In this document: one piece after another, positions 6,402 through 64,000 of the stretch
Layout of the letters: each line of letters begins with the position of its first letter
Position numbering within the stretch: the stretch's first letter is position 1
Assembly: GCF_030013595.1 (NCBI RefSeq)
Contig: NZ_CP122768.1
Source: Escherichia coli
GTDB lineage: Bacteria > Pseudomonadota > Gammaproteobacteria > Enterobacterales > Enterobacteriaceae
DNA: 64,000 nt
Strand: one strand, 5' to 3'
The notes under the pieces: model-generated
What the model saw: the letters and a program-made list of their open reading frames with translations, nothing else
Told to the model about the DNA's origin: nothing
Databases searched by the model: none
Translations under genes and position numbers: made by a program

Positions 6402-7796
6402 TCAGAAGAAGTATTTAAAGCGAACGCGTGCCCCGTAACGGTCATCAGTATCATCACCGTGTTTTTTATCACCGTCGCTATCCAGAATGGAGTAATACGT
6501 CCCGAGGTAAATATTAAAGTTCTCCATATCCATCACATTAGCGAACTGATAAGACGCATGAATGGTGTGAATGGTGTACGTCCCTTCATCATCAATCCAG
6601 CAGTCGTTATCACAAACTACACCGCTGAATTCATCAATCTTATTGTGCGCGTAGATATAACCCAGCTCGAAACGTTTCCACAGCGCGTTAATCCCGGCAG
6701 TGAAATCTTTCTCATTATTAGCATCTAAATAGGCGGTATTAAGATTAACCACGACGCCATTTTCCGGATCCGTTTTCAGGCCATTCCAGGTCATGCTCAT
6801 ACCATAGCCGGTACGATCGGACTGATCGACAAAATTACCCTTGCTATCGGTATAACCATAAGCATTATTTACCACGTTCGCTTCCATCGCTGCGGAAACG
6901 GTAAATTCTTCCGTCGGCGACCAGGCAATTACCGGACGCAGATAAGCAACATTTTTCTGCTGCTCCATATCGCGCCCATGATAATTACCGTCATTATATA
7001 AAGATGTTCCGTCTTCAAGTAACGTGTTTAATTCAAAATACCAGTTATCAAGTTGTTTGCTGACGAGAAAATTACCGCCAGCGTTAGAGCGCCCGCGGCC
7101 CTCTTTCATCATATAGATATAACCGCTGCCATCGTCATAAAGATCGTTCGCAGTATTACCGGAATGTTCAACAAAGGTATCCTGATTCAGCGGGAACATA
7201 TCGTAGGCTTCAAAACGGCCTACTTTGACCTTCCAGTCGTTTTCTTTGCCAAAGAAGAATACCGCATCATCGATATTTACTGAACCGTGCATATCCCCCA
7301 GCGGTTGTGCGGAGAACCCGGCGAAATAGCCATTAGCCAGTTTTCGCATACCATCAAAACCTAACAGAATACGACCATTGAGATTCCACTGTTCATTAGT
7401 GGGATCGCTATTCACATCAGCGTTGGTCATTGCCAGCAGGCCATGATTACTTTCTGCATCCATATTAAATTCTACGTCGCCGTAGATTTTTAAATCGCCA
7501 TAACCTGAGAGCAAAAGATTAGGTGAGGTGGAATTTTTCTTTGCAGATTCCGCCGTTGCCTGTCCATTTACCGGCGTATTGCCCTGGGCAGCCTTAATTT
7601 CGCGGATCTCAGCGGCTTGTTGTGTCTGCAGCTGTTTAACCTGGCTCTCTGCTTTTGCTGCCCGCATTTCTGCAGCTTCCAGGCGTTCTTCCAGCAATGC
7701 CATGCGTTGTTCCAGCGTTAAATGCTGTGTTTTTGCCATTCCGGTACTACATGCCAATAATAAACCGATGGCTAAAGATAATGTCGATTTTTTCAT
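6402..7796 (-). CDS. Outer-membrane carbohydrate-porin-like protein with N-terminal coiled-coil extension (LamB/ScrY-type)
   Basis: 464 aa; signal peptide MKKSTLSLAIGLLLACSTGMA; Ala/Glu/Gln-rich heptad region; Tyr/Gly/Asn-rich beta-barrel-like body; C-terminal ...RFKYFF; lower GC than flanks. Confidence 0.75.
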   Translation of the reverse strand: MKKSTLSLAIGLLLACSTGMAKTQHLTLEQRMALLEERLEAAEMRAAKAESQVKQLQTQQAAEIREIKAAQGNTPVNGQATAESAKKNSTSPNLLLSGYGDLKIYGDVEFNMDAESNHGLLAMTNADVNSDPTNEQWNLNGRILLGFDGMRKLANGYFAGFSAQPLGDMHGSVNIDDAVFFFGKENDWKVKVGRFEAYDMFPLNQDTFVEHSGNTANDLYDDGSGYIYMMKEGRGRSNAGGNFLVSKQLDNWYFELNTLLEDGTSLYNDGNYHGRDMEQQKNVAYLRPVIAWSPTEEFTVSAAMEANVVNNAYGYTDSKGNFVDQSDRTGYGMSMTWNGLKTDPENGVVVNLNTAYLDANNEKDFTAGINALWKRFELGYIYAHNKIDEFSGVVCDNDCWIDDEGTYTIHTIHASYQFANVMDMENFNIYLGTYYSILDSDGDKKHGDDTDDRYGARVRFKYFF

Positions 7797-10181: not shown

Positions 10182-11241
10182 GTTACTGCAACAGTTGTGC
10201 GAAGCCAGCGCCGTCAGCGGCGATGAACAGGAGGTTCGCGACATTCTGATAAACACGCTGAAATCCTGCGTGAATGAAATAACCTTCGATGGGCTGGGCA
10301 GCTTTGTTGCCCGTAAGGGAAGTAAAGGTCCAAAAGTTGCCGTTGTCGGGCATATGGATGAAGTCGGCTTTATGGTCACCCACATCGACGAGAGCGGTTT
10401 TCTGCGCTTTACCACCATTGGCGGCTGGTGGAATCAGTCGATGCTCAACCACCGGGTAACCATACGCACACACAAGGGATTTAAAATCCCTGGTGTGATT
10501 GGTTCCGTCGCGCCACATGCGTTAACCGAAAAGCAAAAGCAACAGCCGCTGTCATTTGATGAGATGTTCATTGATATTGGCGCGAACAGCCGCGAAGAAG
10601 CGGAAAAACGCGGCGTGGAAATTGGTAATTTTATTAGCCCGGAAGCCAATTTTGCCTGCTGGGGCGAAGATAAAGTGGTCGGCAAGGCGTTGGATAACCG
10701 CATCGGCTGCGCAATGATGGCTGAGCTATTGCAGACGGTGAATAATCCCGAAATTACGCTGTATGGCGTTGGCAGTGTGGAAGAAGAAGTTGGCCTGCGC
10801 GGGGCGCAAACCTCGGCTGAACACATTAAACCGGATGTGGTGATCGTGCTGGATACCGCCGTAGCGGGCGATGTTCCGGGCATTGATAACATAAAATACC
10901 CGCTGAAACTGGGCCAGGGGCCGGGGCTGATGCTGTTTGACAAGCGCTACTTCCCCAACCAGAAACTGGTAGCAGCGTTAAAAAGCTGTGCCGCACATAA
11001 TGATTTACCGCTGCAATTTTCCACTATGAAAACCGGTGCGACGGATGGCGGGCGCTACAACGTGATGGGTGGCGGTCGCCCGGTTGTCGCGCTGTGCCTG
11101 CCAACTCGTTATCTGCACGCCAACAGCGGCATGATTTCAAAAGCCGATTACGATGCTCTGCTCACGTTGATACGGGATTTTCTGACCACCTTAACCGCGG
11201 AGAAAGTCAACGCGTTTAGCCAGTTCCGTCAGGTGGATTAA
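10165..11241 (+). CDS. frvX: M42-family peptidase/cellulase-like protein FrvX
   Basis: 358-aa ORF overlapping frvB by 17 nt. Confidence 0.9.
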   Translation: MSMNIELLQQLCEASAVSGDEQEVRDILINTLKSCVNEITFDGLGSFVARKGSKGPKVAVVGHMDEVGFMVTHIDESGFLRFTTIGGWWNQSMLNHRVTIRTHKGFKIPGVIGSVAPHALTEKQKQQPLSFDEMFIDIGANSREEAEKRGVEIGNFISPEANFACWGEDKVVGKALDNRIGCAMMAELLQTVNNPEITLYGVGSVEEEVGLRGAQTSAEHIKPDVVIVLDTAVAGDVPGIDNIKYPLKLGQGPGLMLFDKRYFPNQKLVAALKSCAAHNDLPLQFSTMKTGATDGGRYNVMGGGRPVVALCLPTRYLHANSGMISKADYDALLTLIRDFLTTLTAEKVNAFSQFRQVD

Positions 11242-12989
11242 TGCTAAACGAACGCCAGTTAAAGATTGTCGATCTGCTGGAGCAACAGCCACGCACGCCT
11301 TGCGAGCTGGCGCAACAGACTGGCGTTTCTGGCAGGACCATCCTGCGTGATATTGACTATCTCAACTTTACCCTTAACGGCAAAGCCCGCATTTCTGCCA
11401 GTGGTAGTGCGGGCTATCAGCTGGAAATCTTCGAGCGCCGCAGCTTTTTTCAGTTGCTGCAAAAGCACGATAACGACGATCGGCTGCTGGCGCTGTTATT
11501 ACTGAATACTTTCACTCCCCGTGCGCAACTCGCCTCGGCGCTTAATTTGCCAGAAACGTGGGTCGCAGAGCGTCTGCCCCGCCTGAAACAGCGCTATGAA
11601 CGCGGTTTTTGTCTCGCTAGTCGCCCTGGTTTGGGCCATTTCATTGATGAGACAGAAGAGAAACGCATTATTTTGCTGGCGAATCTTTTACGCAAAGATC
11701 CGTTTTTAATTCCTCTGGCGGGCGTAACACGAGACAACCTTCAGCAATTATCCACGGTCTGCGACAACCAACACCGCTGGCCGCTGATGCAGGGTGATTA
11801 TCTCTCCAGCCTGATTCTGGCGATTTACGCCCTGCGTAATCAACTGACCGATGAGTGGCCGCAATATCCCGGTGACGAGATAAAACAAATCGTTGAACAA
11901 AGCGGCCTGTTTCTTGGTGATAACGCTGTAAGAACCCTGACGGGGTTGATAGAGAAACAGCATCAGCAAGCGCAGGTAATTTCAGCCGATAATGTGCAGG
12001 GGTTGCTGCAAAGAGTGCCGGGCATCGCGTCATTGAATATTATTGATACGCAGCTGGTTGAGAATATTACCGGGCATTTATTACGTTGCCTTGCCGCACC
12101 GGTGTGGATTGCTGAGCACCGCCAAAGCAGCATGAATAACCTGAAAGCCGCCTGGCCTGCGGCTTTTGATATGAGTCTGCACTTTATTACGCTACTGCGT
12201 GAACAGCTCGATATTCCCCTTTTCGACAGCGATCTGATCGGTTTGTATTTTGCCTGTGCGCTGGAACGACATCAAAACGAACGCCAGCCGATCATTTTGC
12301 TCTCGGACCAGAACGCGATTGCCACCATTAATCAGCTCGCCATTGAGCGCGATGTTTTACATTGTCGGGTGATTATTGCCCGTAGCTTAAGCGAACTTGT
12401 TGCCATTCGCGAAGAAATTGAGCCGTTATTGATCATTAACAACAGTCATTATTTACTGGATGACGCGGTAAATAATTACATCACCGTAAAAAATATCATT
12501 ACGGCTGCCGGTATCGAACAAATAAAACATTTTCTGGCGACGGCGTTTATTCGCCAGCAGCCGGAGCGTTTTTTCTCTGCCCCCGGAAGTTTTCATTTTT
12601 CGAATGTACGCGGTGAAAGCTGGCAACATATTACCCGGCAAATATGTGCACAATTAGTGACGCAACACCATATCACCGCCGATGAAGCGCAGCGCATCAT
12701 CGCCCGCGAAGGCGAAGGTGAAAACCTGATTGTTAATCGCCTCGCCATCCCCCATTGCTGGAGCGAACAGGAGCGACGTTTTCGTGGATTTTTTATTACC
12801 CTCGCCCACCCGATCGAGGTGAATAACGAAGTCATTAACCACGTGTTGATCGCCTGTGCCGCCGCCGATGCGCGTCACGAGTTGAAAATATTCAGCTATC
12901 TTGCCAGCGTCCTGTGTCAGCATCCGGCAGAAGTTATTGCCGGGTTAACAGGATATGAGGCATTTATGGAGTTACTTCACAAGGGGTGA
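11241..12989 (+). CDS. frvR: frv operon regulator with HTH and PTS regulation domains
   Basis: 582-aa ORF whose start overlaps frvX stop. Confidence 0.9.
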   Translation: MLNERQLKIVDLLEQQPRTPCELAQQTGVSGRTILRDIDYLNFTLNGKARISASGSAGYQLEIFERRSFFQLLQKHDNDDRLLALLLLNTFTPRAQLASALNLPETWVAERLPRLKQRYERGFCLASRPGLGHFIDETEEKRIILLANLLRKDPFLIPLAGVTRDNLQQLSTVCDNQHRWPLMQGDYLSSLILAIYALRNQLTDEWPQYPGDEIKQIVEQSGLFLGDNAVRTLTGLIEKQHQQAQVISADNVQGLLQRVPGIASLNIIDTQLVENITGHLLRCLAAPVWIAEHRQSSMNNLKAAWPAAFDMSLHFITLLREQLDIPLFDSDLIGLYFACALERHQNERQPIILLSDQNAIATINQLAIERDVLHCRVIIARSLSELVAIREEIEPLLIINNSHYLLDDAVNNYITVKNIITAAGIEQIKHFLATAFIRQQPERFFSAPGSFHFSNVRGESWQHITRQICAQLVTQHHITADEAQRIIAREGEGENLIVNRLAIPHCWSEQERRFRGFFITLAHPIEVNNEVINHVLIACAAADARHELKIFSYLASVLCQHPAEVIAGLTGYEAFMELLHKG

Positions 12990-13588
12990 ACTGTGTCGGA
13001 TGCGCCGCATCCGACACTGCATTTATCACCAAAATCAAAAATGTTTAACGCAAGCTATTATAGTCATCGACCATTTCGTTGTACTCGCGTAACGCTCGCG
13101 GAAATGAGTCGTCGACCATCCAGCTGGTGTTTGCATCCTGAAGTTGCTCTTTATCCCAGTCAGAGTACGGAACTTTATCTCTGACGCGGCGAACATATTT
13201 TTTAGCCTCGAGTTGATACTGGTCTGCCGAATTAATGAACGAGAAATTCATACCGCCTTTATCCGCTTCTTTGGCCTGCGCCACCAGCGTTTCCAGTTCA
13301 GAGACTTTCTTCATTGCCGCATCAACATCAAACTTCTCTTGCGAAATCAGGTTATTAATTTGTTTCGCTGAAATCATGACTGCCAGAGAGTAGTAGTGGA
13401 ATGTTTTCCCTTCTCTTTGTTCAATATTTTTCAGTTCCGCAAGCTGGCGCTTATCGTTAATTTCCTGAATCGCCGCATGATAAGATTCTGCTACAGGTTC
13501 AAAGGCTTCAAGATTTTTTAAGAATGTCTGGTGGGTGATGCTGCCAACTTACTGATTTAGTGTATGATGGTGTTTTTGAGGTGCTCCA

Positions 13589-13864
13589 GTGGCTTCTGTT
13601 TCTATCAGCTGTCCCTCCTGTTCAGCTACTGACGGGGTGGTGCGTAACGGCAAAAGCACCGCCGGACATCAGCGCTATCTCTGCTCTCACTGCCGTAAAA
13701 CATGGCAACTACAGTTCACTTACGCCGCCTCTCAGCCCGGTACGCACCAGAAAATCATTGATATGGCCATGAATGGCGTCGGATGTCGCGCCAGTGCACG
13801 CATTATTGGCGTTGGCCTCAACACGATTTTCCGCCACTTAAAAAACTCAGGCCGCAGTCGGTAA
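13589..13864 (+). CDS. insA: IS1 protein InsA
   Basis: 91-aa [43 protein letters not shown]... (zinc-finger-like). Confidence 0.9.
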
Positions 13865-14286
13865 CCTCGCGCATACAACCGGGCAGTGATGTGATTGTCT
13901 GCGCTGAAATGGACGAACAGTGGGGCTACGTCGGTGCTAAATCACGTCAGCGCTGGCTGTTTTACGCGTATGACAGGATGCGGAGGACGGTTGTGGCGCA
14001 CGTCTTCGGTGAACGCACTCTGGCCACACTGGAGCGTCTTCTGAGCCTGCTGTCGGCCTTTGAGGTCGTGGTATGGATGACGGATGGCTGGCCGCTGTAT
14101 GAATCACGCCTGAAGGGAAAGCTGCACGTTATCAGCAAGCGTTATACTCAGCGCATTGAGCGGCATAACCTGAATCTGAGACAACATCTGGCAAGGCTGG
14201 GACGGAAGTCACTGTCGTTCTCAAAATCGGTGGAGCTGCATGACAAGGTCATCGGGCATTATCTGAACATAAAACACTATCAGTAA
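13783..14286 (+). CDS. insB: IS1 InsB frame (InsAB' transposase made by -1 frameshift at the A6C site near 13840..13846)
   Basis: 167-aa ORF in the -1 frame overlapping insA; slippery ttaaaaaactc motif present. Confidence 0.85.
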
Positions 14287-14987
14287 GTTGGAGTCATTAC
14301 CTGTCTGGTGCAGCGTTTTCCCTTTCGCAAACGCATCGTCTTTATAATTTTCCTGGGTGTAATATTTATCCATTTCGTTAATGGTATTACCCAACGCCAC
14401 GGCAGCATCAATATAACTCACCGCCACGCCATCAATAGGTTGCAGCGCAGGCGTTAACGCCACGACTCTTTTTATTCCTTTTTGACACTCAGAGAGATTG
14501 GATTCACTAATGCCGTAAATGCCATAAACAAGGCTCTCTTTACCTGTTGGCCCCTGTTTAAAATCTTTCAGCCAGTCAGCGTAACGCGCCAGACTGTTCT
14601 GTACAGGAATCTGTAACTTGTTGTAGCACTTGATATAGACATCCATTTTTTCGTCGAAAACCGCTTGTTCATCGACCACCGGTTGCGCAGGCGTTTCAGG
14701 TTTAACTTCTGCTTTTGCAACGGGAGCTTCAGTAGGTTTCGCTTCAGGAGCTGGTGCGGCAGGTTGACTATTGGCAGGCGGGGGCGTTTCTGTTTCGGCT
14801 TTTTTATCATCACAACCCGTGAGACCGAGGGCCATGATGGCGACTATAATAGCGGAAGATAATAAATTCCTTTTCATTTAATTGCCTTATAAATATATAG
14901 ATAAGAGAGTGAACATAATAAATGAAAAAAGAAAACGCCACTACACGCGTTTTGTTTATAAATAAAATAATAAAATTCACGAAATGA

Positions 14988-15026
14988 ATAAGTCCTGCAA
15001 TTTAATATATATCGCAGGACTTATTT
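14988..15026 (-). terminator. Hairpin downstream of fdhD (aataagtcctgc...gcaggacttatt)
   Basis: 12-bp perfect inverted repeat just after the fdhD stop, in an AT-rich context. Confidence 0.5.
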
Positions 15027-15029
15027 TAA

Positions 15030-15863
15030 TTAATTGCTCAAACGCTGCGGATGGGTATAAACCGTTGCCCGGCCCGGTTTACAAAAGCCCACCAGCGTCA
15101 AATTACAGCGTTCAGCCACTTCTACAGCAAGTGTGGTCGCGGCAGACACCGCAAACAAAATCTCTACGCCACACATCGCTGACTTTTGCACCATTTCATA
15201 ACTGGCACGGCTGGAAACCAGCACCGCACCTTGCTGCCAGCTTTCCCCTTCTTGTGACCGGCGGCCTAACAGTTTGTCCAGCGCCACATGGCGACCCACG
15301 TCTTCATGCCCGCCGACCAGTTCGCCAGATGGCAACATCCAGGCAGCGGCGTGAGTACAACCAGTCAGTTGCCCCACTGGCTGAAAATCGTTGAGATGAC
15401 GTAATGCATCATCCAGTTTGTTGAGATCAAACGTCTGGGTGAACGGTAGCGGCTGCACCGGTTTTCCGATGTCATTAAGTTGCTCCACGCCGCATACGCC
15501 ACAGCCCGTACGTCCCGCCAGCGCCCGGCGGCGCTCCTTCAACCCCATAAAGCGGCGGCTGGAAAGCTCAATTTGTACTTCAAGACCATTACAGGAAGGA
15601 ACGACATCCATGCCGAAGATATCGCGCGGACTTTCTATTATCCCCTCGGAAAGCGAAAAACCGAGCGCAAAGTACTCAAGGTCTTTGGGCGACGCCATCA
15701 TCACCACATGCGAAATGCCGTTGTAGACCAGCGCAACGGGAACTTCTTCCGCGACCTCATCTAACCGTGGGTGTTGTAAATCATCACGCCGCCATAACTC
15801 AATTTGACGAACACTCGTGATATTTGTCACATTTTCGATTTCTTTTTGCTGTGTTTTTTTCAC
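15030..15863 (-). CDS. fdhD: Formate dehydrogenase accessory sulfurtransferase FdhD
   Basis: 277-aa ORF divergent from fdoG. Confidence 0.9.
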
Positions 15864-16056
15864 TTTCTCTTAACCAGATAAGAACACACACACCAACATT
15901 ATGGTATTCTGTTACAAACCCTTCCTGGATGGAGGGAAATTGAGCCAATTCTGGACCTTTGCGGCCCCTTCCGCAAAGAAAAATAACTCCCACTCCCTGC
16001 ACACGCAGCAAGCGAATGTAAATGGGACGTGACAATGTCGAAACAAGGAGCAATCC

Positions 16057-19000
16057 ATGCAGGTCAGCAGAAGGCAGTTCTTTAAGATCTGCGCTGGCGG
16101 TATGGCAGGCACCACGGCAGCGGCACTGGGTTTTGCCCCCAGCGTAGCGCTCGCGGAAACCCGGCAGTATAAACTGCTGCGCACCCGCGAAACCCGTAAT
16201 ACCTGCACCTATTGTTCCGTAGGCTGTGGGCTGTTGATGTACAGCCTCGGTGACGGAGCAAAAAACGCCAAAGCATCTATCTTCCATATCGAAGGTGACC
16301 CGGATCACCCGGTCAACCGCGGAGCACTTTGTCCGAAAGGCGCTGGCCTGGTGGATTTCATCCACTCCGAAAGCCGTCTGAAGTTTCCGGAATACCGTGC
16401 GCCAGGTTCTGATAAATGGCAGCAAATCAGTTGGGAAGAGGCGTTTGATCGCATCGCCAAACTGATGAAAGAAGACCGCGATGCTAACTACATTGCGCAA
16501 AACGCCGAAGGCGTGACTGTTAACCGCTGGCTCTCCACCGGGATGCTGTGTGCTTCCGCGTCGAGTAACGAAACCGGCTATTTAACGCAAAAATTCTCCC
16601 GCGCGCTGGGTATGCTCGCGGTTGACAACCAGGCGCGTGTCTGACACGGACCAACGGTAGCAAGTCTTGCTCCAACATTTGGTCGCGGTGCGATGACCAA
16701 CCACTGGGTCGACATCAAGAACGCCAACCTCGTCGTGGTGATGGGCGGTAACGCCGCTGAAGCTCACCCGGTCGGGTTCCGCTGGGCGATGGAAGCCAAA
16801 ATTCACAACGGCGCGAAGCTGATTGTGATCGATCCTCGCTTTACGCGTACGGCGGCGGTAGCTGACTACTATGCCCCTATTCGTTCCGGTACTGACATTG
16901 CTTTCCTGTCAGGCGTATTGCTGTACCTGCTGAACAATGAAAAATTCAACCGCGAATACACCGAAGCCTATACCAACGCCAGCCTTATCGTGCGTGAGGA
17001 TTACGGCTTTGAAGATGGCCTGTTCACCGGCTACGACGCGGAAAAACGCAAGTACGATAAATCCTCCTGGACTTACGAACTGGACGAAAACGGCTTCGCC
17101 AAACGCGATACCACGCTGCAACATCCGCGCTGCGTGTGGAACTTGCTGAAACAGCACGTTTCCCGCTACACGCCGGATGTGGTTGAAAACATCTGTGGTA
17201 CGCCAAAAGACGCGTTCCTGAAAGTCTGCGAATACATCGCCGAAACCAGTGCACACGATAAAACTGCCTCGTTCCTGTATGCCCTCGGCTGGACGCAACA
17301 CTCCGTTGGTGCGCAGAACATTCGTACGATGGCGATGATCCAGCTGCTGCTCGGCAATATGGGGATGGCAGGCGGCGGCGTTAACGCCCTGCGCGGTCAC
17401 TCCAATATTCAGGGACTGACGGACCTGGGGCTGCTGTCGCAGAGCCTGCCGGGTTACATGACGCTGCCGAGCGAGAAGCAGACCGATCTGCAAACCTACC
17501 TTACCGCCAACACGCCAAAACCGCTGCTGGAAGGCCAGGTAAACTACTGGGGCAACTACCCGAAATTCTTCGTCTCCATGATGAAGGCCTTCTTTGGTGA
17601 TAAAGCGACGGCGGAAAATAGCTGGGGCTTTGACTGGTTGCCGAAGTGGGATAAAGGCTACGACGTCCTGCAATACTTCGAGATGATGAAAGAAGGCAAG
17701 GTCAATGGCTATATCTGCCAGGGCTTTAACCCGGTTGCCTCATTCCCGAACAAAAACAAAGTGATCGGTTGTCTGTCGAAACTGAAGTTCCTCGTCACCA
17801 TCGACCCGCTGAACACTGAAACCTCTAACTTCTGGCAGAACCACGGTGAGCTGAACGAAGTTGACTCGTCGAAGATCCAGACCGAAGTGTTCCGTCTGCC
17901 ATCGACCTGCTTCGCGGAAGAGAACGGTTCTATCGTTAACTCCGGTCGCTGGTTGCAGTGGCACTGGAAAGGTGCGGACGCCCCGGGAATTGCGCTGACT
18001 GATGGCGAGATCCTCTCCGGTATCTTCCTGCGCTTGCGCAAGATGTATGCCGAACAGGGTGGCGCGAACCCGGACCAGGTGCTGAACATGACCTGGAACT
18101 ACGCCATTCCGCATGAGCCGAAGTCGGAAGAAGTAGCGATGGAGAGCAACGGTAAGGCGCTGGCCGATATTACCGATCCGGCAACCGGTGCGGTTATCGT
18201 CAAGAAAGGCCAACAACTTAGCTCGTTCGCCCAACTGCGCGATGACGGTACGACCTCCTGTGGCTGCTGGATTTTCGCCGGTAGCTGGACGCCAGAAGGT
18301 AACCAGATGGCGCGTCGTGATAACGCCGATCCGTCTGGCCTCGGTAACACGCTGGGCTGGGCATGGGCATGGCCGCTTAACCGCCGCATTCTGTATAACC
18401 GCGCCTCCGCAGATCCGCAGGGTAACCCGTGGGATCCGAAGCGTCAGTTGCTGAAATGGGACGGCACTAAGTGGACCGGCTGGGATATTCCGGACTACAG
18501 CGCAGCACCTCCGGGTAGCGGCGTCGGGCCGTTTATCATGCAGCAGGAAGGCATGGGGCGTCTGTTTGCCCTCGATAAGATGGCGGAAGGTCCGTTCCCG
18601 GAACACTACGAGCCGTTTGAAACGCCGCTGGGAACTAACCCGCTGCATCCAAACGTTATCTCGAACCCGGCTGCACGTATCTTTAAAGACGACGCCGAAG
18701 CATTGGGTAAAGCCGATAAGTTCCCGTATGTCGGAACCACCTATCGTCTGACCGAGCACTTCCACTACTGGACCAAACACGCGCTGTTGAACGCGATTTT
18801 GCAACCAGAGCAGTTTGTGGAAATCGGTGAGTCGCTGGCGAATAAACTTGGCATTGCCCAGGGCGATACCGTGAAAGTCTCCTCCAACCGTGGCTATATC
18901 AAAGCCAAAGCGGTGGTGACCAAACGTATTCGCACGCTGAAAGCGAACGGCAAAGATATCGATACCATCGGTATTCCGATTCACTGGGGCTATGAAGGTG

Positions 19001-19107
19001 TTGCGAAAAAAGGCTTTATTGCCAATACGTTAACGCCATTCGTTGGTGATGCGAACACGCAGACGCCGGAGTTTAAGTCCTTCCTTGTGAATGTGGAAAA
19101 GGTGTAA
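16057..19107 (+). CDS. fdoG: Formate dehydrogenase-O major subunit (selenoprotein; in-frame UGA at 16642..16644 read as Sec)
   Basis: ORFs 16057..16644 and 16693..19107 are one frame split only by TGA; Tat signal (RRQFFK); molybdopterin oxidoreductase body; total 1016 aa. Confidence 0.95.
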
Positions 19108-23135: not shown

Positions 23136-24950
23136 TCAGACTCCCATCCCTACGGTATACGAGCTAGATTCATGAATGAAATCGACATTTTTAAAAAACG
23201 AATCTTGTAAAACATCCGTGTTGATATTACCTTGCAACCCAACATTAAATTTGTTAGAGAGATGAAGAACTCGAATATCAAAAAGGTCTTTTAACATCAT
23301 TAATTCTTTGGCTGTTAATGAATCGCAACTAAAATATCCCTGTTGATCAAAAAGCTTTTCTATTTCTCTACCATCGGCGAGGCGTTTTTCAAGGAGTGTT
23401 TGCAACATCGAGTTGCCAAGGACAATGGATATCGTGCGATCTTTCGCAGATTTACACCCCATCACAACGGCAACATTCGTATCCCCCTCAGGAGTTTCAT
23501 TTATCGCCGTCGCTAAAATGGTGGTCAAACACGCAAACGGAACTGTATTTCTTTCGTGATTTAATTTATCTACCAGTTCATTCCATTTATCAAAAGCCGG
23601 GCTATATTTGTTGCGTACAGAAATATCCGACTGGTTAAACAATTCAGCCATGCGATTTTTTATCATCTCGATATCCGGCGAACCAGAAAGACTTTGCGCA
23701 TAATACGGTCCTGATGATGTTGCATACATTAAAGCCGAGCCCACACCTGTCGCCATGATGGGCGCAGCTACGGTTTTGGCAAGGGCGACGCTGCGATGGC
23801 TATGCGCTTCACAGGCTAAAGGAACATATTCCACTGACTGCGGTAATTCCTTACATGCCTCCCTCATCATTGCGGTATGCTTTACAAACAACGGTTTTTC
23901 ACTGCCCAAAAAAACCTTCTGCTTAATTGCACTAAGAAAACGTAAATCCAAAATGATTGTTTTTGGTTTATTATTTTTTGGCACATTTCCTATTATCCCG
24001 CTAAGAACCTTCCTTGCTGCATGGAGATTTTTTTGCACAGCACATAACACAATTGACGAAGCCTTCTCTACTGCGTTATTGATTTTAATTTTAAAATCTG
24101 CATGATATACGTTGACGGGCAATGCAAGTATATCTTCCCCTACATCTTTGGCTGAGTATTTATTTGTGATCGACGGTCGTGAATCCACGAGAAAACTTAG
24201 CTGCAAATTATGCTCTATATTACCAGCTGTTTTTGTAGTGTGATTAAACATAGAGATGCCACCTCTCATTCTTTCACACATATCCTCAACTTTATCACTT
24301 CGTTCTTGTGGCAATTTGGCTTTAACGTTAATTTGATGATTTTTACCCGTGCATTCCTTAACAACAAGAGGAATGTTATCTAAAGTGCCATACAGGCTAA
24401 TAACGTCACCAGGATTTTTATCATGTAAGTAAGTTTGATTAATACTCGAAGCATTCACAAAGAGGTCAATATTATAACTGTTTATAACTTCACCTACATC
24501 AAATGTGTAGTGCTTACTCTGGAGGCTGCCATCCTTGTTTAATTGTATATCAATCAAGATATCCCCGGACTTTGTCACCATATCTTTGCCATAAACCATT
24601 TGCATAGCCATTTCGAGGAGGTTTTTATCTAACTGATTGCGGGCGTTGAGTAAGCGACTACCAAATAATTTATATACTGTTCCCGTCATTGCCAGCGCTG
24701 CGCTTTCTGGTACTTTGCGTTTCCACAGTGAGGTTTCTTTATTTTTAAACAGGTCATATTTATTATTACTCGACAACCCGAGTTTAAGTTCGTTAACACA
24801 ATCGCACAGTTGCTCCTCACCTTCCATTTTAAGGCGATGTGAAAAATCATTTAATAGCGTTTGCTTCGGTGATTCATTGCTCATTAGTTGTTTTTCTAAA
24901 TTAACAATAGAATAACTTTCTTGTTTAATGAGATTAATATTGGCAACCAT
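23136..24950 (-). CDS. Hypothetical 604-aa protein with CX5R phosphatase P-loop (CKSAKDRT); candidate IpgD/SopB-like phosphoinositide phosphatase
   Basis: Intact ORF; Shine-Dalgarno AAGGAGG 6 nt upstream of ATG; AT-rich by eye; motif VVMGCKSAKDRT encoded at 23433..23456, about 105 residues from the C-terminus. Confidence 0.8.
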   Translation of the reverse strand: MVANINLIKQESYSIVNLEKQLMSNESPKQTLLNDFSHRLKMEGEEQLCDCVNELKLGLSSNNKYDLFKNKETSLWKRKVPESAALAMTGTVYKLFGSRLLNARNQLDKNLLEMAMQMVYGKDMVTKSGDILIDIQLNKDGSLQSKHYTFDVGEVINSYNIDLFVNASSINQTYLHDKNPGDVISLYGTLDNIPLVVKECTGKNHQINVKAKLPQERSDKVEDMCERMRGGISMFNHTTKTAGNIEHNLQLSFLVDSRPSITNKYSAKDVGEDILALPVNVYHADFKIKINNAVEKASSIVLCAVQKNLHAARKVLSGIIGNVPKNNKPKTIILDLRFLSAIKQKVFLGSEKPLFVKHTAMMREACKELPQSVEYVPLACEAHSHRSVALAKTVAAPIMATGVGSALMYATSSGPYYAQSLSGSPDIEMIKNRMAELFNQSDISVRNKYSPAFDKWNELVDKLNHERNTVPFACLTTILATAINETPEGDTNVAVVMGCKSAKDRTISIVLGNSMLQTLLEKRLADGREIEKLFDQQGYFSCDSLTAKELMMLKDLFDIRVLHLSNKFNVGLQGNINTDVLQDSFFKNVDFIHESSSYTVGMGV

Positions 24951-42114: not shown

Positions 42115-42265
42115 AACTTTGCCTCAGGCATTAGAAATAGCGCGTTATTGTACACGGATTAATCGCACTACAAAACAGGATCACAAACATCCTCCGCAAA
42201 CAAGTATTGCAGAGTCCCTTTGTGATCGCTTTCACGGAGCATAAAAAGGGTTATCCAAAGGTCAT

Positions 42266-42316
42266 TGCACCAATATGGTGCTTAATGTTTCCATTGAAGC
42301 ACTATATTGGTGCAAC
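42266..42316. promoter_or_regulatory. NtrC enhancer sites upstream of glnA
   Basis: tgcaccaatatggtgc and gcactatattggtgca match the TGCACC-N5-GGTGCA consensus. Confidence 0.7.
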
Positions 42317-49023: not shown

Positions 49024-49086
49024 AATGGTTCGTCTTTTAGCCGTTTTATTCAGTATAGATTTGCGGCGGAATCTAACAGAAAGCAA

Positions 49087-49334
49087 GCAAAGAAAAAAGG
49101 CGACAGATTACTCTGTCGCCTTTTTTCCTGACTCATAACCCTTAACGGGTCTTACAATCCTTGCAGGCCGCCAACACACCCTGTTTTTCCATTAGCCGGA
49201 ACAATCCGTGTTGATTCCATTTCCGTTTAATTACGTCTCCGGACGTTTGTCTTCCTGACAATCCTCTGTCTTCGCCTCCTGGCGCTCCTGACCCTCATCC
49301 TGAGTCATTGTTCCTGTTAGCGTCCTCGCTCTAT
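49087..49334 (-). ncRNA. csrC: CsrC small RNA (CsrA-sequestering)
   Basis: Minus strand carries multiple AGGA/GGA motifs and a terminator hairpin (ggcgacagagtaatctgtcgcc + T-run); matches recalled csrC in the yihI-engB intergenic region. Confidence 0.8.
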
Positions 49335-50360: not shown

Positions 50361-50471
50361 AATAAAAAACGCCCCAGTCATTACTGACTGGGGCGGCTAA
50401 AATATTCAGCCAAATCCGATTACGTGAAGTAAAAGGTCTGAAAGATAGAACATCTTACCTCTGTACCCTAC
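50361..50471 (-). ncRNA. spf: Spot 42 small RNA
   Basis: Reverse complement matches recalled Spot 42 from gtagggtacagaggtaagatg to ccccagtcagtaatgactggggcgtttttt terminator. Confidence 0.9.
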
Positions 50472-50618
50472 GCGACTAACTTTACTCTTTTTTGTTCAGT
50501 TCAGAAAGCATTTTTTGTAATTTTTTTTCAGTTGTTGCATAGGAATTTCTAATAGCCATCACAAAACGTGACAGCTTATGTTGCTTACTTACGAAAAAAG
50601 GGCATATTCAGGCGAATC

Positions 50619-59563: not shown

Positions 59564-59683
59564 ATGCCTGGCAGTTCCCTACTCTCGCATGGGGAGACCC
59601 CACACTACCATCGGCGCTACGGCGTTTCACTTCTGAGTTCGGCATGGGGTCAGGTGGGACCACCGCGCTAAGGCCGCCAGGCA
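59564..59683 (-). rRNA. rrf: 5S ribosomal RNA
   Basis: Reverse complement matches E. coli 5S over 120 nt with one apparent substitution near the 5' end. Confidence 0.95.
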
Positions 59684-59775
59684 AATTCTGTTTCATCAGA
59701 CCGCTTCTGCGTTCTGAGTTAATCTGTATCAGGCTGAAAATCTTCTCTCATCCGCCAAAACATCTTCGGCGTTGT

Positions 59776-62680
<2,905 letters not shown>

Positions 62681-62873
62681 TCACAACCCGAAGATGTTTC
62701 TTTCGATTCATCATCGTGTTGCGAAAATTTGAGAGACTCACGAACAACTTTCGTTGTTCAGTGTTTCAATTTTCAGCTTGATCCAGATTTTTAAAGAGCA
62801 AATATCTCAAACATCACCCGAAGATGAGTTTTGAGATATTAAGGCAGGTGACTTTCACTCACAAACCAGCAAG

Positions 62874-62949
62874 TGGCGTCCCCTAGGGGATTCGAACCCC
62901 TGTTACCGCCGTGAAAGGGCGGTGTCCTGGGCCTCTAGACGAAGGGGAC
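62874..62949 (-). tRNA. tRNA-Glu (UUC) in the 16S-23S spacer
   Basis: Reverse complement GTCCCCTTCGTCTAGAGGCCCAGGACACCGCCCTTTCACGGCGGTAACAGGGGTTCGAATCCCCTAGGGGACGCCA, 76 nt. Confidence 0.95.
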
Positions 62950-63034
62950 GTATCAGTCTGCTTCGCAAGACGCCTTGCTTTTCACTTTCTATCAGACAAT
63001 CTGTGTGAGCACTGCAAAGTACGCTTCTTTAAGG

Positions 63035-64000
<966 letters not shown>

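Follow-up and report, generated by a model that had tools for sequence, protein, structure and literature searches.

An intact IS1 element with a 9-bp target duplication interrupts yiiG in Escherichia coli

The closest described relatives of the element reported here are IS1A, IS1B and IS1X2, the IS1 elements of the Enterobacteriaceae. These are 768 bp long and end in imperfect repeats of about 23 bp that start with GGTGATG or GGTAATG, and they carry insA, insB' in the -1 frame, an A6C motif and a left-end promoter, encode a 232-aa InsAB' and give a 9-bp target duplication in AT-rich DNA. InsA is an inhibitor and repressor of transposition, A6C is the programmed -1 frameshift site that fuses InsA to InsB', and on a regional scale IS1 prefers AT-rich DNA. 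The closest described events are the IS1 insertions in the yiiG gene of strains H2, CH4784, CUWW10 and A21005-2 and of isolate 131, which lie in the AT-rich middle third of the gene, have 8-9-bp duplications and appear in PGAP annotation as split DUF3829 pseudogenes.

We analysed a 64,000-nucleotide stretch of an E. coli genome (contig NZ_CP122768.1; the whole stretch is referred to below as the window), in which an initial annotation had placed an IS1 insertion in yiiG. The IS1 in the window shares all of the features listed above with IS1A, IS1B and IS1X2. It differs from them in sequence at the isoform level, its PGAP label being simply 'IS1 family transposase', and these differences do not make it a new element. 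The event likewise resembles those in the strains named above in the gene hit, the duplication length, the position in the AT-rich middle third, the split-pseudogene annotation and the orientation, the last of which is uniform among the yiiG events as an ascertainment artefact because the query joined same-strand pieces only. The insertion points and the IS1 isoforms differ, and the events are therefore independent of one another. The insertion in the window is a textbook case of IS1 inactivating a dispensable gene, an already known kind of event. The features of the locus are collected in Table 1.

Table 1. Features of the IS1 insertion in yiiG and of its surroundings, in window coordinates.
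Feature	Position	Strand	Remark
frvR	11241..12989	+	converges on the yiiG 3' end
yiiG 3' fragment, codons 190-351 and stop	13045..13533	-	severed from promoter and start codon
Left target-site duplication TGTCTGGTG	13525..13533		single copy at the HCP5S3_I2 empty site
Complete IS1, 768 bp	13534..14301	+	
Left inverted repeat (IRL) GGTGATGCTGCCAACTTACTGAT	13534..13556	+	
Sigma-70-like promoter, CTGCCA / 16-nt spacer / TATGAT	13541..13568	+	inside the IS1 left end
insA, 91 aa, GTG start	13589..13864	+	zinc ribbon and helix-turn-helix
insAB' coding region, 232 aa	13589..14286	+	13589..13843 in frame 0, then 13843..14286 in frame -1
A6C slippery motif AAAAAAC	13840..13846	+	in the insA/insB overlap
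yiiG 5' fragment, 218-aa ORF	14221..14877	-	192 native residues and 26 from the IS1 end, then stop
Right inverted repeat (IRR) GGTAATGACTCCAACTTACTGAT	14279..14301	-	minus-strand reading
Right target-site duplication TGTCTGGTG	14302..14310		
Terminator-like hairpin between fdhD and yiiG	14953..14932	-	
fdhD	15030..15863	-	upstream of yiiG

Ends, coding content and relatives of the IS1 copy

The length of the element was checked by script and is exactly 768 bp, and the element aligns without gaps and over its full length to 768-bp IS1 copies in other genomes. Its ends are 23-bp imperfect terminal inverted repeats that match each other at 19 of 23 positions, and the same end sequences are present on IS1A, IS1B and IS1X2 copies. 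Each end sequence is present a single time in the 64-kb window, where shuffled sequence gives an expectation of 0, so the 64 kb hold a single IS1 and a composite transposon, which we considered as a candidate, was rejected. The identical 9-mers that flank the element form a repeat of exactly 9 bp: the bases adjoining it differ (A/C and G/C), and there is no extension on either side. Identity of the 9-mers at both ends would arise by chance with a probability of about 4e-6. The initial annotation had described a 768-bp element with IS1-type inverted repeats between identical 9-mers, and all coordinates of that description hold on re-inspection.

Within the element, insA matches the Pfam families Zn_ribbon_InsA and HTH_Tnp_IS1, and the -1 frame, which stays open through position 14286, matches DDE_Tnp_IS1 (E = 1e-74); the family scores (75.3 bits for PF03811, 97.1 bits for PF12759 and 249.4 bits for PF03400) are all far over their cutoffs. 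The slippery site is read in the insA frame as TTA AAA AAC. Conceptual -1 fusion gives an InsAB' of 232 aa without an internal stop, which scores 242.8 bits against the NCBIfam equivalog for IS1 family transposase (NF033558, cutoff 100) and is identical at 232 of 232 residues to a PGAP-annotated copy in strain P13-6. It had been claimed that insA and a -1-frame insB with its A6C motif are intact, and on this point the absence of stops, the family models and the uninterrupted fusion agree. The only promoter-like site returned by a consensus scan of positions 12800..16100 is the one in the IS1 left end, which falls at what we take to be the known position of the IS1 insA promoter, and an Rfam scan gave no match in or beside the IS1. 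No defining structural feature of IS1 is missing from the element.

At the DNA level this copy is 97.1% identical to an IS1X2 copy and 93.4% identical to an IS1A copy, and its InsAB' is identical at 226 of 232 residues to that of an IS1X2 copy, at 221 of 232 to that of IS1B and at 219 of 232 to that of IS1A. Copies identical over all 768 bp are found in E. coli from pigs or swine (the ETEC series, O139:H1, O141:H4 and UMNF18), both on chromosomes and on plasmids and in varied contexts (rcsA, selB, dcuC, yiaN and others). Among the matches listed, the isolates behind 55 of 55 records with 100% identity were from pigs, swine or wild boar, and an IS1 copy at 99% identity or more is present in only 150 of the 9,595 matching records. 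The exact isoform appears to be tied to pig-associated E. coli; sampling, with several large porcine ETEC projects, and a real host-associated spread of plasmids are both possible sources of this association. The isoform has probably been active recently, because 100%-identical copies lie at many different sites in pig E. coli. The earlier suggestion that this is a recent and possibly still mobile copy seems fair, given the intact parts of the element and the identical copies at many sites. A pig-linked and apparently recently active isoform is of minor epidemiological interest.

The interrupted yiiG, its empty site and the carriers of the junction

Removal of 13534..14310 in silico restores a continuous minus-strand ORF of 1,056 nt that encodes 351 aa, and the restored product matches DUF3829 (PF12889) over residues 73-349 with 339 bits (E = 3.5e-101). 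This upholds the earlier statement that the flanking fragments join in frame to give a protein of 351 aa, described there as a lipoprotein. The 9-bp duplication corresponds to yiiG codons 190-192 (His-Gln-Thr; CDS nt 568-576; minus strand CACCAGACA). It lies in the AT-richest part of the gene, the surrounding 109 bp having 40% GC, which is the 9th percentile of the window. The 5' fragment retains the putative signal peptide and lipobox (LTGC, with Cys22) and the first part of DUF3829; the YiiG N-terminus, MKRNLLSSAIIVAIMALGLTG-C22-DD, resembles a lipobox LTGC as judged by eye. Under the established +2 rule, Asp at position +2 would suggest retention in the inner membrane. A PDB sequence search found no solved structure among YiiG relatives. 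A MarA ChIP-seq site, gcgcgttatgctgac, has been reported inside yiiG of ETEC H10407 (PMC5684230), and positions 14575..14589 of the window read GTCAGCGTAACGCGC, one base off the reverse complement of that site, in the retained 5' fragment and untouched by the IS1.

By its sequence, the clone is a close relative of isolates from pigs. Two faecal isolates from UK pigs, HCP5S3_I2 and LCP30S3_I5, match the right-hand 10 kb of the locus at 100.0% identity. Comparison with the yiiG of an IS-free strain had been proposed as a check on the insertion, and HCP5S3_I2 offers a natural empty site for it: yiiG is intact there and annotated as 'YiiG family protein' (WP_001604334.1), and the site reads AAGAATGTCTGGTGCAGCG, with one 9-mer only. 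When the IS1 and one repeat are taken out of the window, 2 mismatches in 7,223 bp separate it from HCP5S3_I2, and the restored YiiG is identical to the HCP5S3_I2 protein, the difference from this member of the YiiG/DUF3829 family being that the gene in the window is broken at codon 192. Over the whole window, with the rRNA operon excluded, 13 SNPs and 2 single-base indels distinguish the two genomes. They belong to one clonal lineage without being the same clone, and the insertion is younger than their split. The central claim of the initial annotation, that an IS1 with a 9-bp target duplication splits yiiG, is supported by the sequence checks, by the family models and by this natural empty site.

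A 100-bp probe for the left junction had no match of 80% coverage or more in 5,426 complete E. coli genomes. In NCBI assemblies, at least 11 contigs encode the 218-aa chimeric protein that is specific to the junction, and at least nine assemblies contain the junction independently of one another. In GCA_900448395.1 a 3.4-Mb contig matches the window at 6,657 of 6,657 bases, both junctions included. Eight drafts from several submissions have an identical right junction on contigs that end inside the IS1, with 0-1 differences per 3.7 kb. Public carrier assemblies already annotate an IS1 transposase and the two yiiG fragments as separate ORFs. The presence of the junction on at least 11 NCBI contigs argues that the insertion is real and clonally inherited and not an artefact. 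Since the junction is absent from the 5,426 complete genomes and common to the draft set, typing of this lineage could use either the IS1/yiiG junction or the 218-aa chimeric ORF as a marker.

These data also bear on whether the IS1 might be an artefact of assembly or a relic that is old, decayed or immobile. Short-read assemblies break at IS1 and misjoins are conceivable in principle, and beyond this we found no support for either. Against them stand insA and insAB' reading frames without stops or frameshifts, intact inverted repeats and duplication, the 100% identity of this IS1 to many copies elsewhere, the independent recovery of the junction and the one contig that spans both of its sides, and we regard a relic or artefact as hardly credible.

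The reading that we favour, with a probability of about 0.92, is simple transposition of an intact IS1 into the yiiG coding region followed by inheritance in one clone. The donor would have been a resident IS1 copy on the chromosome or on a plasmid; the sister strain HCP5S3_I2 carries an identical 768-bp IS1 on its chromosome and another on a 96-kb plasmid, so that a donor is at hand. As expected from IS1 biology, InsAB', produced when ribosomes occasionally slip into the -1 frame at A6C, would bind the inverted repeats of the resident copy and insert the element into the AT-rich middle of yiiG, and staggered cleavage and repair would leave the 9-bp duplication. YiiG function would be lost, with DUF3829 (residues 73-349) cut at residue 192, and the remaining product would be at most a truncated lipoprotein of 218 aa with a 26-residue foreign tail. 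The insertion would then have been passed down one clone, several independent assemblies of which carry it. Most probably it has little or no effect on fitness, neutrality being an assumption on our part. The gene should be marked as a pseudogene in this clone, which matters little beyond annotation. The natural yiiG knockout and the near-isogenic HCP5S3_I2 with its intact gene could be used together in a search for a YiiG phenotype.

Recurrence of IS1 at yiiG

Other complete genomes have independent IS1 insertions in yiiG at CDS nt 499-507, 544-552, 545-552 (with an 8-bp duplication) and 758-766. In these genomes the stretch from nt 499 to nt 776 contains at least six separate IS1 sites, further insertions lie upstream of the gene at -14..-6 and -59..-52, and about 10 distinct IS1 events in or beside yiiG were found in other strains. 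The other sites within yiiG have a GC content of 33-45% and lie in its AT-richest third. Three one-piece genome alignments that were considered as instances of the same insertion were rejected, as their junctions are at different sites about 24 bp away. In several strains IS1 is associated with adjacent deletions that take out frv genes, the 5' part of yiiG or the stretch from fdhD to fdhE: the porin-frv region is missing beside the IS1 in TW14425 and YZMc10-2, the region from the 5' part of yiiG through fdhE is missing in S1-INA-02-B, and the 5' part of yiiG is missing in LCP30S3_I3.

Such recurrence raises the alternative that the insertion in the window was selected, loss of YiiG being beneficial (under antibiotics or in the pig gut) and IS1 being the commonest route to a knockout. 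The six or more sites at nt 499-776, with more just up- and downstream, are in keeping with this, as is the persistence of the insertion in a clone that has been sampled several times. In the literature, one study attributed 32% of E. coli insertions to IS1 and listed yiiG as a hotspot of mobile-element insertion, replicated across two E. coli collections (bioRxiv 10.1101/527788). In another, a mutational scan, yiiG promoter mutations and an ATG>ATT start-codon mutation were recovered among antibiotic-selected mutants (PMC11742677).

As a control, we inserted the same IS1 in silico at sites of similar GC in yihF and in a RafY-like porin gene and repeated the search. IS1 was found at or beside the site in 27 complete genomes for yihF, 13 for the RafY-like porin gene and 10 for yiiG, these being counts of genomes and not of independent events, obtained with a query that detects one orientation only. 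By this crude genome-count measure yiiG is not exceptional as an IS1 target, and we rejected it as a special IS1 hotspot showing selection. That two AT-rich, dispensable control genes equal or exceed yiiG counts against selection of the insertion. So do the occurrence of IS1 at the yiiG locus in only about 0.3% of complete genomes, the position of the sites in the AT-richest stretch, as the regional preference of IS1 predicts, and the intact yiiG of the closest relative. The preference for AT-rich DNA together with the dispensability of the gene is enough to explain the recurrence at yiiG.

On balance we consider it unlikely that this insertion was selected, and we likewise doubt the broader proposal that selection repeatedly favours YiiG inactivation in E. 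coli, raised tolerance to antibiotics or to gut stress being a conceivable benefit. The hotspot survey and the antibiotic-selected mutants leave room for a selective benefit of YiiG loss. If there were one, the clone-wide IS1 knockout would be one case of convergent adaptive gene loss, and recurrent selection would point to a first phenotype for the DUF3829 family.

Neighbouring genes and the rest of the window

The interrupted gene sits between frvR and fdhD, and annotated genomes share the order frvX-frvR-yiiG-fdhD-fdoG. The initial annotation had raised the possibility that the IS1 is polar on frvR or fdhD or provides outward promoter activity toward them, and neither suggestion survives inspection of the locus. 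Neither gene is downstream of yiiG: fdhD lies upstream on the same strand, with the terminator-like hairpin in between, and frvR is convergent. With no gene downstream in the same direction, polarity on fdhD or frvR is impossible and no polar effect of the insertion is expected. Any read-out from the IS1 would be antisense to both genes, and the consensus promoter scan of 12800..16100 found no promoter-like site across either IS1 junction. IS1 ends are known to build hybrid promoters where the flanks are suitable, which is the one point that speaks for an IS1 whose effect is mainly regulatory, acting on fdhD or frvR by polarity or from an outward promoter. With the gene arrangement, the hairpin and the empty scan of the junctions against it, we judge such an effect very unlikely, and simple inactivation of yiiG by transposition remains our preferred reading.

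Between the convergent stops of frvR and yiiG, positions 12993..13017 form a near-perfect 25-bp palindrome, GTGTCGGATGCGCCGCATCCGACAC, which resembles a REP-type hairpin and could plausibly end transcripts arriving from both sides; the terminator scan is silent on it because it has no T-run. Both of the SNPs near the insertion that separate the window from HCP5S3_I2 lie in fdhD and change the protein, at S17G and A153V; here and below the window residue is given first. Relative to the common fdhD allele, WP_000753617.1, the window shows Q6R and S17G. Since S17G is seen in both comparisons, Ser17 seems to be particular to this clone. Beyond fdhD, a SECIS element (Rfam RF01989, 84.3 bits) lies at 16639..16697 on the plus strand, at the in-frame TGA of fdoG, which is known biology; because of this TGA fdoG appears as two ORFs, 16057..16644 and 16693..19107.

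A continuous minus-strand ORF of 604 aa lies between yiiE and fabY, at 23136..24950, and has no Pfam or NCBIfam match. In the sister genome, PGAP splits the DNA of this ORF into a 'transposase' (WP_236265008.1) and a partial 'hypothetical protein', and there are no differences between the two genomes anywhere between 20755 and 31512. The window ends in an rRNA operon (59566..64000) with 5S, 23S, tRNA-Glu and a partial 16S; the 23S differences from the sister strain cluster at 60465..62325 and probably reflect variation between operon copies. The small RNAs CsrC (49081..49334), Spot 42 (50363..50481) and ES222 (42196..42303) are present as expected.
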